This document shows positions 24,055 to 56,226 of a DNA stretch of 64,000 nt, piece by piece. Source of the DNA: a virus; IMG/VR virus record IMGVR_UViG_3300019763_000001, positions 91,494 to 155,493 of that record; one strand, 5' to 3'. The notes under the pieces are model-generated. The model was given only the letters and a program-made list of their open reading frames with translations, was not told where the DNA came from and did not search any database. Numbering within the stretch: position 1 is the stretch's first letter; each line of letters opens with the position of its first letter. The translations under genes and the position numbers were made by a program.

Positions 24055-24625
24055 TTAAGCGATAGCCTGACGTTTTGTCATGGAATGTCGTCTTATCAAT
24101 TTACGTTGCCTTTCACTAATAATATCGTTATCGATCATTTCTGCATCAACTTTTGTTAGTTCTGCTTTACTCGGATCAACACCTTTAACTTTAAAAATGT
24201 ATCTGTCATAAGACTCCAACACTCTATTAATAAAATCACGCTTAGAAACTTTATCAAGTCTAAACACCTGATTAGTTCTATACATCCAATCTAGTGTTCT
24301 TTTAACTTGATTTCTATGCATTGAGTAATATAGAGCATCTGATACTTTCGCATCTTCATTTTCATCTAAAATAAAGTCAACGAACTCATTTAGATGTTTA
24401 GCAATATATCCTGGTGTCTTCCTAACATCAATTTCATTAACGTAGCTCTCGCCAAATTCGCTTCTCTTAACTTGAAAATAAGTTCTAGCTAACGATACCT
24501 GTCTTTGTGGGTTTAGCCGTTGCACCTACAACAGTTTTAGGTAGCTTTAATTCATCATTATCAACCTCAACATAAAAATTTGGAGTTTGGATAATGGTTG
24601 TAAATTTCTTTTGAATCTTTCTCAT
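24055..24625 (-). CDS. hypothetical protein, 189 aa, recoded at TAGA (24487-24484)
   Basis: GAGGA RBS + ATG 24625; 46 codons, then TAGA, then +1 frame joins the 24055-24525 ORF. Confidence 0.75.
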
Positions 24626-24639
24626 GTTATTATCCTCAA

Positions 24640-25978
24640 TTAAGTAAAGCAATGTGTAACTTTAGATGAGCGTGTGATTGCTGTATAAAACATCCTTAAC
24701 GATGACATATCAACACCATATTTGAAGATATCAGTCACAAATACAGCTGTATTTTCAAACGTACTCCCTTGTGATTTATGAGCAGTCATTGCGTAGCAGT
24801 GCTTGAACCCAACAAACTGACTCTTTGTTTCATAGAATGTCTTCCAACTCCCTTTACCGCTTTTAGCTTCATCAACTAAGTGTTGAAGATAAGCATCATA
24901 AATTCTCTGCTCTTCATCCGCCCAATCAACACATACTGTATCAACAACTAACGGCATTAATTCATCTGGCTTATTCTCTTCCAATCTCAGATTCCAATAT
25001 GCAAATGGCATATCCTCTTCAGCTGGAACATATCGACACTCTTTTATTCTATATTCCATATTGTTGATTATATCACCATCTTCACCATCTGTCCCTTGAG
25101 AAATAATAATCTCACCTTCCATGAAGTTTGGTATATCAGTTGTTTTGAAGATAGCTTCTCTAATTTTCTTATTAAAGAAATCAACAGATTTATTTGTATA
25201 GCATACGATTCTATAAACATCAGGATTATCCAAATAATCATCCCTAGTCATATGAGCTAATGCATCTTTAAACATTTGCTGCCGTGTTATGAAACGTACA
25301 CCTTCATCATTTTCATTGATATCTTCCCTAATTAAAGGAATTCTAAAATCTTTCGCATCTTGCATCTTTCTAACAGACGTGGCTAAACTAATAATAGGAC
25401 TATCTTTCGCTTGCCTAACAATCTCGCTCAACTCAAATCTGTTTTTCATAAAGAAAGATGGGGATATAAAACCGTATTTTTCTAATCCGTCATTATCAAC
25501 TGGCTCAATTTGATACATATCACCAACCATCAATAGATGTTTGAAACTACCGTTTTTCATTTCTGTAACTATTCGCTTAACGATATTCAGATCATTCATC
25601 GAGCATTCATCGACAATCAAAATATCACCTTCCCAAGGTTGTTTCTTGGGATTTTTAACCCACACTTCTTGATCTTCTTGCCAGATTGGTTTAAGCGCTA
25701 AAATTGAATGAATTGTTGATAATGTAACGTAAGTACCATACTTTTCAAGAGATGGCATTTTTGCCTTCAGAACACCAACAGCTTTATGTGTTGGGGCAGC
25801 AATAGCAACTCTTTTGCTATGTTTACCTACTAGATCGTCTGTTAACTCTGCGCTCAATACTGTTTTACCACATCCTGCCGGTGCTTTCAAAACGTTAGTT
25901 GTTGAACCAGTTTTCAATAAATTTGATTTAATTCTATGTATACTGTTCTTGTTGGTGATCAGTTAGAGTATATCCCAT
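24640..25978 (-). CDS. dda: Dda-like SF1B helicase, 445 aa, recoded at TAGA (25936-25933)
   Basis: AGGAG RBS + ATG 25978: MGYTLTDHQQEQYT[TAGA]IKSNLLK..APAGCGKT; DECSM, GDMYQIEPV, YAMTAHKSQGSTF, YTAITR. Confidence 0.92.
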
Positions 25979-26002
25979 ATCTGTTCTCCTAAAATGTTGT
26001 TT

Positions 26003-26036
26003 AAAAAAGGGTGTAAGCATTTACGCCTACACCCTT
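26003..26036 (-). terminator. Rho-independent terminator
   Basis: AAGGGTGTA stem followed by T-run on minus strand. Confidence 0.65.
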
Positions 26037-52596: not shown

Positions 52597-52802
52597 GCTT
52601 AAGAGATTCACCACCGTATAGAAATTATAGCCTTTCTGATGCATGTTTAGAGTATGTTAAGGATAATTTACGAGTGAATTCTGATGATTGCAGACATTTG
52701 AAATATCTAGAAGCGCATGATATGATTTGCGACGTAGTTCCAATCGGAGAACGGCATATGGTAAATTGGTCAAAGATTAAGGAATTGGTCTATAGACTTT
52801 GA
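52593..52802 (+). CDS. hypothetical protein
   Basis: ATGA overlap. Confidence 0.55.
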   Translation: MSLRDSPPYRNYSLSDACLEYVKDNLRVNSDDCRHLKYLEAHDMICDVVPIGERHMVNWSKIKELVYRL

Positions 52803-52820
52803 TATGAGGGGTAAATTTTA

Positions 52821-53471
52821 ATGCCAACAGCACAGGAATTAATTGGATATGGGCATCAAGCATGGTGCATAGGTATAGCTTTAAAATTACACTTTACTAC
52901 ACCAAACTATGATATCTTCAAGTATGATGGTGAAGTTAAGAACAATGGTATAGCGTACTTCAAAAAGAATAAATCTCGTGGTATGTGGTCAAAGCTTGGT
53001 CTGTACATGAAAAAGAAAGGCGTTTACCAAAAAGCGTTAGATTTCCTAGCTGCTCAATATCTGTATGCTGATAAGCCTTACAAATCTATTTTTGTGCCTG
53101 ATATGATGGATGAAAACGCTATAAATCGCCATTTGAAGTATGTTTCTGATAGGGGTAGAATGTTTCAACAATTCATTAACGACTTTGAGATAATCTATGC
53201 AGACGCAAGAAGTAAGAAAATTGGTATCAATGAGTATGTTGTTCCTGTTAATGGTCAATCTCACTTGTTCAATCTATATGAGCAAGATAAGATCGACTGG
53301 CTAACAATGATAGCGTTCGATTGGATTCTCAACATTGCAGAAGCATGGGATAATGAAACGATTGATCATTTTACATGGCCTGATGTTCGTAGTAAAATCT
53401 CTAAATGTTCAAAGTTTTACGAAATTGAAGCGCAGGATTACATCGATCACATAAACACAAGATTAAGTTAA
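52821..53471 (+). CDS. gp59: helicase loader gp59
   Basis: IALKLHFTTPNYDIFKYDG..F; C-terminal W...KI.K.SKF. Confidence 0.85.
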   Translation: MPTAQELIGYGHQAWCIGIALKLHFTTPNYDIFKYDGEVKNNGIAYFKKNKSRGMWSKLGLYMKKKGVYQKALDFLAAQYLYADKPYKSIFVPDMMDENAINRHLKYVSDRGRMFQQFINDFEIIYADARSKKIGINEYVVPVNGQSHLFNLYEQDKIDWLTMIAFDWILNIAEAWDNETIDHFTWPDVRSKISKCSKFYEIEAQDYIDHINTRLS

Positions 53472-53483
53472 GAGGAAATTGCA

Positions 53484-56226
53484 ATGACGCAAAAACCGAA
53501 GTTTTACACTTTTTACAAATCATGGGGGAATAAGATATTTCACAGCTATTATGATGAAAGTGGAAATAAACACAATGATATAGTAGAAGATTTCAATCCC
53601 AAGCTATACATCCCATCTGATACATCGAAATCGGAATTCACATAGAGTTAAGGATATTCCTTTACAACAAGTTTCCTTTGGTTCTATTAGGGACGCTAAA
53701 GACTTCATCGATGAGTATAGTGATGTTGAAGGTATAGAAATATACGGAACAACTAAATGGGGTGTTCAGTTTATACAAGAAACATACGGTGCAAATATTG
53801 ACGTAGACTTAAGCATGATAACAGGTCTATGGATTGATATTGAGACTGATTACGATCCACAGCGCCAACCAGATCCAAAATCTGCTGAGTTTGAAATTAG
53901 ACTTATTCAGATATACAACTCAAGAACAAAATCGTTTGATGTGTTTGGATTCAATGAGCAAGGGTATAAGCACGATAAAAGTCATCCTGAAATCGGCCAT
54001 TTAAATCCAACATATCATACCTGTGTAGATGAAGATGAACTTCTCATTAAGTTTTTAGCGCTCTTCAAAGAAGCAAATCCTGATTGGATTTCTGCATGGA
54101 ATGGTACGAAGTTTGATAACCCAACAATCTACTTTAGAATGGCTAAGTGTTTGGGTGAAAGCACAGCCAATCAACTATCACCTTTCAATATAGTTAATAG
54201 TCGAGACTTTAAAGATGACTATGGCAATATGGTAACATCTGTTGAAATTGTGGGTGTATCAAATCTCGATTATATGGAAGTTTACGATAAGCATAATTTT
54301 ATCCCTAGGGAGCGTATGTCATTAGATTTCATTTGTGAAGCTGAGCTTGGTGCAGGTAAAGTTGACTATAGCGAATATGGAAATTTGAATGATCTATATT
54401 TTAAGAACTTCCAGCTGTATGTTGAGTATGGTATACGAGATGTTGACTTACTAGCAAAACTTGACGAAAAGCGTCAGTTTATGAATATCACTTATGCTAT
54501 CGCATATTTTGCAAAAGCGAATTTTGAAGATACGTTAGGAACCGTCGCTCTATGGGAAACTATTATATACACCTACTTGGATAATCAGAATCGATATACT
54601 ACAATTAAAGGGGATGTTGGATCAAAAGAAAGGTATCCTGGTGCTTACGTTCTACCTGTACAGCAAGGTAGATATAAGTGGGTGTTGTCTATAGACTTAG
54701 CATCACTGTATCCACATTTAATTCAGCATTTCAATACTGGTCCAGAAACGTTAGTTGAATTTTGGGATCTTCCTGAAGATGTTCAACAATGGGTTAGAGA
54801 TAATAGACCTATTGGTTCAGATCCAAAATACTTAGATTCTGACGTTGCAGCTAGCTTAGGAGTCCCAGAAGAATATGAGTTTTTGCAATGCATAAACGCA
54901 TTTTTGAACAAGGATGTCGATACAAGCATACTGAAGAAACATAATCTATGTGTTTCCGGTAATTGGCAATTCTTTAGCAATGAACGAATGTCGTTTTTAT
55001 CTGAGCTGATGCGTAAGTTGTATGCAGATCGTAAAGCCCATAAAAAGTTAATGCTTGCTGCAGAACAAGCTAAAGTGAGAGCAAAAGAAGAGCTTGAACA
55101 CAGAGGTACCCATAGCGAGTTTGCTGGATGGGCTGATCAACAAGTTAAAGAAGAATATCATAAACAAGCTGCAATAGAAGTTGCAGAAGATGGGAACCAG
55201 CAATCTAGAAAAATTCTCATGAATAGCGTCTATGGGGGGTTAGGTAACGCTGCTTTCCAACACACTGATCCACGAATTGCTGCTGCTATTACTTTAGGTG
55301 GGCAGATAACTAATAAGTGGACAGGAAACAGGATAAACAAGCTCTTAAACACCATAATGAAAAATGATGTTGAGAAGAATTATACACCAGCTGGTGATAC
55401 AGATTCTCTATATATAACATTAGATGACATTGTTAAAAAGCTTGGTATAGAAAATGAAAGTGAGGATGTTATTGCGGATAAGTTAGATGCATTCTATAAG
55501 AAAGTTCTTGAACCTAAGATTGAATCTTGGATGGATGAAATGGCTGATTATATGAATGCATATGAACAGCGAATGTTCTGGGATAGAGAGGTTATTGCGC
55601 CAGTATCTATCAACGTATCTAAAAAGCGCTATGCAATGAAAGTTAAAGATAGTGAAGGTGTTAGATTCGAGACTTGCAAAACAAAGGTTATTGGGTTAGA
55701 AGCTAAAAAATCGAACACCCCTGTATGGGCAAGACCTATTTTGGAGAAAGCCTATCAGCAAGCATTGGATTCTGATGTTGAAAGTCAGATGCATACATTT
55801 ATTGATGAAGCTCGCAAAAAGTTTAATGATCTTCCAGTGTACGATATTTGTTCACCGACTGGTGTTAAGGGTATCGATAAATACACTGATAAGAAGACAG
55901 GTGAAGCTATAAAAGGTGCGCAAAAACACATTAGATCGGCAATTAACTTCAACAAAGTCATAAAGGATTTTTATATCGACGCATCGCCCATTCAAAGTGG
56001 TGCAAAAATTAGATATGTTGACTTGAAGATACCTAATCCATATAATGTCGATGTATTGGGTTTTGATGGAGAAATTCCTCCTCAAATGTTGCCAGTGATT
56101 GAACAATATGCTGATAGAGAAGCGCTATGGCAATCAGGGTTCGTTAAACGCCTTAAGAACTTTATAGATGCTATTGGTTGGGAAACAGAACCTAAAGGTG
56201 GCGATTTATCAGACTTTTTTGTGTAA
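53484..56226 (+). CDS. gp43: family-B DNA polymerase gp43, 913 aa, recoded at TAGA (53643-53646)
   Basis: GAGGA RBS + ATG 53484; DIET, WNGTKFD, DLASLYP, KILMNSVYG, GDTDS, KKRYA. Confidence 0.96.

Follow-up and report, generated by a model that had tools for sequence, protein, structure and literature searches.

In-frame TAG junctions with continuation in the +1 frame and a tRNA-like UCUA RNA in an uncultured T4-like phage

Interrupted genes in the window

The DNA under study is a stretch of 64,000 nucleotides (the window) that corresponds to positions C1:91494-155493 of the complete 155,493-bp virus record IMGVR_UViG_3300019763_000001, which carries terminal repeats, has a GC content of 35% and originates from microbial-mat metagenomes. 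Positions without prefix are those of the window, while the prefix C1 denotes the complete record. In this stretch, several genes, mainly for replication proteins, contain an in-frame TAG followed by one additional base, after which the coding sequence goes on in the +1 frame. A tRNA-like RNA with a UCUA anticodon is encoded at 46312-46406. Apparently, the replication proteins can be made only if UAG and the next base are read as a single serine word.

Seven junctions in six genes had been described in the original prediction, and all of them were found in the sequence at the same positions and with the same flanking codons. The gene of the DNA polymerase gp43 (913 aa, 53484-56226, plus strand) contains TAGA at 53643-53646, codon 54. 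The recombinase gene uvsX (378 aa, 40561-41699, plus strand) is interrupted twice by TAGA, at 40648-40651 (codon 30) and at 41543-41546 (codon 328), and that of the replicative helicase gp41 (484 aa, 42123-43578, plus strand) once, by TAGG at 42225-42228 (codon 35). These three assignments are based on PHROG profiles, homologues and reads. On the minus strand, TAGA was located in three further genes. The Dda helicase (445 aa, 24640-25978, junction 25936-25933, codon 15) was recognized by its profile, with only four homologues at the junction column. In a gene of 473 aa (29572-30994, junction 30961-30958, codon 12) the profile match is located downstream of the junction. The last one, a hypothetical protein of 189 aa (24055-24625, junction 24487-24484, codon 47), gave no family match in the profile searches and was delimited by its Shine-Dalgarno (SD) sequence, coding score and architecture only.

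The common architecture that had been claimed for these genes was evident in each case: an SD-like motif and a start, an in-frame TAG, one extra base, and a +1 frame that stays open for 50-859 codons. Triplet readthrough was closed by a stop within 1-11 codons at all seven sites. The PHROG profiles extended across the junctions in gp43 (5-912), UvsX (5-350, both sites), gp41 (1-468) and Dda (2-439). A check of the junctions against reads had been proposed, and it was carried out for the uvsX, gp41, gp43 and tRNA positions with Logan contigs from two runs, which have depths of 20 and 39 and may each be the source. No differences or gaps were detected at these four loci. A third, shallow run spans the second uvsX junction.

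The 473-aa protein had been labelled PolA-like, which could not be substantiated. Its sole profile match was phrog_4756, a family annotated as of unknown function, and no polymerase match was obtained in Pfam, NCBIfam or PDB. A single-sequence structure prediction was unusable (predicted local distance difference test, pLDDT, of 37), and one cluster of look-alikes in the Atlas bears the automatic name RNA polymerase family. By eye, some motifs of the protein seem reminiscent of the folds of family A polymerases or of T7 RNA polymerase.

The junctions across the genome and their residue

The phage belongs to the T4-like phages, since it has the core replication genes of T4 and gp55, as judged by PHROG matches, as well as late promoters. 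The late-promoter motif TATAAATA occurs in 18 copies. The nearest gp43 was that of Pseudomonas phage pf16 (38% identity), and the best identities were 43% for UvsX, 40% for gp41 and 58% for NrdB. The phage is uncultured and its nearest proteins are thus distant; no close relatives were found in IMG/VR and the JGI metagenomes. Its class Ia ribonucleotide reductase (RNR) of the E. coli type hints at a host in the Proteobacteria.

Over the whole 155-kb genome, 17 junctions were identified in 16 genes (14 TAGA, two TAGT and one TAGG), one of them weak. Besides those of the window, the scan revealed junctions in genes for an A1-like protein (C1:18776, TAGT), primase (C1:19767), dNMP kinase (C1:21400), the late sigma factor gp55 (C1:22170), the sliding clamp gp45 (C1:38632), RuvC (C1:39717, TAGT), both RNR subunits NrdB (C1:41209) and NrdA (C1:43515), and a small virion protein (C1:80599). 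The weak one (C1:54916) is without homologue, and the part downstream of it has its own possible ATG. Family profiles crossed the junctions in 11 genes, namely those of gp43, UvsX, gp41, Dda, primase, dNMP kinase, gp45, RuvC, NrdA, NrdB and the small virion protein. In a small gene (L017, C1:54735-55048, minus strand) a TAGA was seen in the middle of the gene and a terminal TAGG that overlaps the next SD sequence. The TAGG at C1:54747 is ambiguous, as the +1 frame is closed by a TAA two codons further on.

When all stop words and all shifts were scanned blindly, TAGA with a +1 shift was found 11 times and every other class at most twice. The genome has 156 open reading frames (ORFs) with a length of 100 aa or more; TAA terminates 103 of them, TGA 52 and TAG a single one, this last end being the second uvsX junction. 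The gene-caller score was compared under 11 codes, and the best one treated TAG plus any base (TAGN) as one residue. This code gained about 160 points in the phage and lost 120-910 points in seven phages taken as controls, among them T4, pf16 and phiW-14. Other rules (TAG with a +2 or -1 shift or as a triplet, and TAA or TGA words) resulted in lower scores. With TAG accounting for 16% of the stops in the frame that is entered, the chance that 17 random +1 insertions would all meet TAG as the first stop was estimated as ~4e-14. Four ordinary split gp43 genes of other contigs, taken as control, stop at TAA or TGA; in the three for which the available DNA allows the break to be located, it lies upstream of the stop. 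When split gp43 N-termini were searched for, the breaks retrieved likewise all ended in TAA or TGA. A tblastn survey of about 85 T4-like loci, among them the nearest contigs (L014, L100, L101 and L103), detected no TAG +1 junction; in L029 one frame change was observed within gp41, and L014, L035, L036, L037 and L042 contain internal stops.

The fourth base was A in 14 of the 17 junctions (background 46%, p ~0.002) and never C. It had been proposed to be always a purine, which is refuted by the two TAGT sites outside the window, so that the word is UAGN instead of UAGR. The claim that the sites have no slippery sequence in common held over the whole genome, with 13 different codons preceding the junctions. 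Nor was any common SD-like or structural signal found at them. Sixteen junctions fall within the first 55 codons of their genes (p ~5e-10), and the virion block, with 36% of the codons, harbours only one of the 17 (p ~0.006).

In order to place the shift and the residue, homologue profiles were used. In seven of the nine testable genes the score of the shift was highest exactly at TAG, and in eight of the nine a single junction residue outscored none. At the first UvsX junction, 75 of the 86 homologues having a residue in that column carry Ser, while the second falls within a gappy loop. In the NrdB column Ser was found in 32 of 40, and the nearest homologues share the flanking motif. The column of gp43 contained 18 Ser and 15 Thr among 40 homologues, that of gp45 contained 12 Asn and 8 Ser, and the NrdA junction aligned without gaps to a Ser of E. 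coli NrdA. When 12 columns were pooled, Ser came first and Arg near last (137 and 4 of 357, respectively). Ser was the best residue over these columns at every pseudocount, 16-36 bits above Arg. The junction residue is thus best explained as Ser. This weighs against any process in which the U is skipped, since a skipped U (by a shifty stop, slippage or editing) leaves AGA, which is Arg.

The tRNA-like RNA at 46312 and other features

The original prediction of a tRNA-like RNA with an 8-nt loop and a UCUA anticodon was borne out by folding. The RNA (46312-46406, plus strand, 95 nt) is of type II and resembles selenocysteine tRNAs (tRNA-Sec) and allo-tRNAs; it is a candidate UAGN-reading tRNA-Ser. 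It displays an 8-bp acceptor stem, U73-CCA, a 4-bp anticodon stem and a 9-bp variable arm, and the D arm consists of either a 6-bp stem with a 3-nt loop or a 5-bp stem with a 5-nt loop. The anticodon loop, A32-U33-UCUA-A37-A38, occupies 46343-46350, with the anticodon at 46345-46348. The register of this 8-nt loop was supported by the anticodon stem, in which four of five pairs form, compared with two of five in the 7-nt register of an amber suppressor. Below the 4-bp stem, mismatches or a bulge were observed. For the T arm two registers are possible: one keeps U55-C56-G57 and has a G-A mismatch in a stem of four positions, and the other gives an 11-bp branch. The GC content of the RNA is 55%, in comparison with 35% for the genome.

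The RNA lies within a putative precursor (46297-46418, plus strand) in which the leader 46297-46311 pairs with 46404-46418 in a perfect 15-bp helix. The fold has a free energy of -59 kcal/mol (z -6.6), and none of 200 shuffles was as stable. This helix prolongs the acceptor stem and buries the CCA end. No comparable leader/trailer extension was apparent in the folds of the phage tRNA-Arg and tRNA-Met, and it may serve as a processing or maturation signal. A promoter scan near the RNA gave 14 matches against 9.9 +/- 3.1 in shuffles, which is no clear excess, and no TAG leader was found beside it.

ARAGORN did not detect the RNA at default settings, and at a low threshold its output was noise. 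Rfam gave no tRNA match at E up to 10. The identity of a tRNA-Sec was rejected, as the anticodon is not UCA and the Rfam model does not match. Pattern scans for homologues returned none among the matches listed. With a narrow pattern, the GTDB scan produced one bacterial match, which is not a tRNA. The same 8-nt loop was found in canonical-shaped (type I) tRNAs of two unrelated phage contigs, L108 and L329. In both, L108:3000-3075 (IMGVR 3300025316_000590) and L329 near 2900-2990, the tRNA adjoins a related gene of about 160 aa with no known function. In the genome of L108, TAG is an ordinary stop. The same holds for G001, a genome with such a tRNA, in which TAG serves as an ordinary stop (26 of 116) and no phage-wide recoding is seen. 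Domains of RF-1, PTH2 and class II synthetases were searched for in the whole genome and none was found.

In allo-tRNAs, a long variable arm together with G73 or U73 constitutes serine identity, and in E. coli these tRNAs insert Ser regardless of the anticodon (PMC5389517). The 9-bp arm and U73 of the phage RNA conform to this rule. Therefore, the residue expected from the RNA agrees with that deduced independently from the proteins.

A distant CmoA-like, S-adenosylmethionine-dependent gene (56512-57261, plus strand; E 2e-16, far below the equivalog cut-off) directly follows gp43 and is adjoined by a cytosine methyltransferase gene (57265-58413, plus strand). CmoA feeds cmo5U34, a modification which widens the wobble of U34. 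The CmoA-like gene could have to do with the acceptance of A, G and U as fourth base, but its involvement in DNA modification is no less probable.

Among other features of the phage, a tRNA-Arg(UCU) is encoded at 62940-63017, a membrane protein of the Bax inhibitor-1/YccA family at 47145-47765 (plus strand), and a P-loop kinase at 48198-49067 (plus strand; phrog_5268, with weak similarity to the zeta-toxin family). The late-gene block contains several large unusual proteins (13203-22844 and 38882-39697), and a protein of 1025 aa occupies the tail-sheath position (C1:71547-74624).

Decoding of UAGN and its possible meaning

The programmed four-base decoding that had been proposed is strongly supported, genome-wide, as far as the net reading of four bases at in-frame TAG is concerned. 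That this reading is obligatory is regarded as highly probable from the sequence. It is also probable, with less certainty, that the phage's own tRNA decodes UAGN as Ser, because the junctions specify one residue, Ser and not Arg, with an A-biased fourth base, no cis signal was seen, and no phage release factor or synthetase was found. The A bias is as expected if this base contacts a U, and so leans towards a fourth-base contact.

In the proposed mechanism, the RNA would be expressed and charged by the host seryl-tRNA synthetase (SerRS) without the anticodon being read. Its 8-nt UCUA loop would compete with the host release factor 1 (RF1) at in-frame UAG, pairing best when the fourth base is A and tolerating G and U. 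Ser would be added and the ribosome would move four bases, either by four-base pairing in the A site or by a shift completed during translocation. In most classical suppressors, no more than three bases are paired at once (review PMC5009743). Without the tRNA, RF1 would release peptides of 10-53 residues, and polymerase, helicase, primase, clamp, RNR, UvsX and the late sigma factor would not be made. The phage seems to have nearly eliminated TAG as a real stop, by which collateral frameshifts would be avoided. The words may have originated by insertion of a T before a Ser AGY codon, giving TAGY, with the fourth base tuned to A later on. The supply or maturation of one RNA would turn on replication, deoxynucleotide synthesis, recombination and late transcription together. 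Such a regulatory switch, with true pairing of all four UAGN bases and hence a mixed triplet/quadruplet code, can only be put forward tentatively; the switch is suggested by the location of the sites near the 5' ends and their bias to replication genes. If the mechanism is granted, the case that the tRNA acts as a switch for the entry into DNA replication and late transcription is evenly balanced.

Several observations weigh against this reading. An 89-aa ORF (C1:243-512) apparently ends at TAGA as an ordinary stop, which is likely the sole true TAG terminator (a degenerate copy of tRNA-Met is seen just downstream of this ORF, L019:243-700, equal to C1:243-700). The primase junction column is aromatic in 11 of 11 homologues, that of gp41, though gap-free, holds hydrophobic or varying residues, and for RuvC the score improves when the junction residue is omitted. 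The differences between Ser and Arg per site are small (0-3 bits). The T arm of the RNA is abnormal, its loop not being the canonical UUCGA, and some of the allo-tRNAs whose stems are damaged show no activity (PMC5389517). Engineered UAGA readers are only 10-40% efficient against RF1 (PMC8481270), and UvsX needs two four-base events. No homologue of the tRNA was found and no phage relative above 40-58% protein identity, so that covariation or co-occurrence lends no support.

An explanation of a different kind is a shifty stop, as in Euplotes or RF2: the decoding of UAG would be slow (with a weak or inhibited RF1), the U would be skipped and the next triplet read, AGA or AGG as Arg and AGU as Ser, perhaps aided by the phage tRNA-Arg(UCU), the RNA at 46312 being incidental. 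The presence of this tRNA-Arg and the genome-wide stop-triggered +1 shifts of Euplotes (PMC10235951) speak for it; it predicts the same number of residues, and the TAGT sites give Ser either way. However, the TAGA columns are rich in Ser with almost no Arg, most of the preceding codons do not allow +1 re-pairing, and neither an SD sequence nor a slippery P-site codon was found as common stimulator. Furthermore, the junctions use TAG and never TAA or TGA, no release-factor domain was found in the genome, and it would be mere chance that this genome also encodes a UCUA-loop RNA with serine traits. A shifty stop is thus considered unlikely. About equally unlikely is that the four-base Ser word is real but is decoded by a host tRNA or another, unrecognised factor, the RNA at 46312 being a relic or having another role. 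The abnormal T arm and the CCA end buried in the precursor helix would be compatible with this. On the other hand, the anticodon fits the commonest word and its fourth-base bias, the tRNA identity elements match the independently deduced residue, and the only bacterial match of the GTDB pattern, which was narrow, is not a tRNA. A loss of one base from the mRNA, by transcriptional slippage or editing, or the use of internal starts by the downstream parts is very improbable: the sites show no homopolymer or common motif and deletion of U would give Arg at TAGA, while the pieces upstream represent conserved N-termini, which contribute 10-61 bits in eight of nine genes, and most junctions have no SD-led start nearby. 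An artefact of the assembly, or random frameshifts in a genome undergoing decay, might be suspected, given that a single metagenomic lineage is available, that both deep read sets may be the source and that, within the window, the read comparison covered the plus-strand loci. Such an origin is nevertheless extremely improbable in view of the identical architecture at 17 sites, the two runs without differences, the complete genome with terminal repeats, and the different appearance of control split genes.

A further alternative concerns only the function. The decoding would be the same, but, once the tRNA was present, the junctions would have accumulated neutrally, surviving only where early termination is cheap, a possibility that is appreciable and yet held to be somewhat doubtful. 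In the case of Euplotes, a neutral spread of non-triplet sites has been advocated (PMC10235951). Truncated products carry a cost that would by itself select for 5' sites, and junctions would be purged from virion genes because of their high expression. Against this, the sites gather in core replication genes, both RNR subunits and the late sigma factor, with almost none in many small dispensable genes, and most genes have one site.

In comparison with known systems, the RNA has the traits of a quadruplet tRNA (qtRNA), with an 8-nt loop in which U33 precedes a four-base anticodon and cognate words at 17 sites that need a +1 shift. The classical +1 suppressor sufD tRNA-Gly-GGGG (PMC9094753) belongs to the same class of expanded-loop tRNAs. 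With the engineered qtRNA-Ser-UAGA the phage RNA would share a serine scaffold whose anticodon is not read by SerRS, and with the evolved form of that qtRNA, Evo1 (C32A/A38C), it shares the 8-nt loop, UCUA, A32 and, as proposed here, RF1 competition and a loose fourth position (PMC8481270). Evo1 competes with RF1 and tolerates fourth-base mismatches, C32A being one of its two changes (PMC8481270); A32 of the phage RNA and the occurrence of TAGT and TAGG sites are in keeping with this. Unlike the engineered UAGA tRNAs, the phage RNA is natural, genome-encoded and accompanied by matching obligatory sites in essential genes, and it differs from Evo1 by its Sec/allo-like body, abnormal T arm and A38 instead of C38. 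With the allo-tRNAs 8/4 and 9/3 it shares the 8-bp acceptor, long D stem, long variable arm, U73, phage origin and a probable Ser identity with a non-Ser anticodon (PMC5389517). In contrast to these, it has an 8-nt anticodon loop, an anticodon stem of 4 bp that is not lengthened, a 3-nt D loop instead of the tetraloop that accompanies their long D stem, and a non-canonical T loop. Of their 12-bp acceptor branch, the 8-bp acceptor is present, and the T stem comprises four positions with the G-A mismatch or else forms the 11-bp branch.

The amber-recoded phages of genetic code 15 also reuse UAG by means of their own tRNA, possibly in standard-code hosts and with a proposed control of timing (10.1101/2021.08.26.457843). 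They employ triplet readthrough at many sites biased to structural and lysis genes, the opposite gene class; here readthrough is closed, and a four-base step occurs at mostly single, near-5' sites in replication genes. Code 15 was rejected for this phage on account of the rapid closure of readthrough and of a score for TAG as a triplet below that of the standard code. In Euplotes, internal stops specify a frame change in many genes as well, but this system is eukaryotic, uses UAA and UAG with +1 or +2 shifts, skips the base and is attributed to termination behaviour with no dedicated tRNA (PMC10235951). In the mitochondria of Perkinsus, with AGGY/CCCCU frameshifts, a recurrent four-base word has been proposed to be one residue (AGGY for Gly), yet it is a sense-codon word in an organelle, with no tRNA identified (PMC2952869).

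The original statement that no natural multi-gene example had been described is consequently valid for systems with a cognate tRNA, and not for non-triplet decoding in general, as Euplotes and Perkinsus demonstrate. No paper was found in the literature on natural multi-gene quadruplet decoding with an own cognate tRNA, and the lack of quadruplet codes in nature is a topic of a paper from 2022 (PMC9094753). So far, four-base codes are apparently in print only from laboratory engineering. The present genome supplies both halves: essential genes contain the four-base words, and the RNA at 46312 is a candidate for the cognate tRNA. If the reading is true, evolution converged on the loop selected by engineers (A32 and UCUA), and a naturally optimised UAGA reader would be available for genetic-code expansion. 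In that case gene callers would miss or truncate genes in such phages, and a translational on-switch for phage replication would be suggested.

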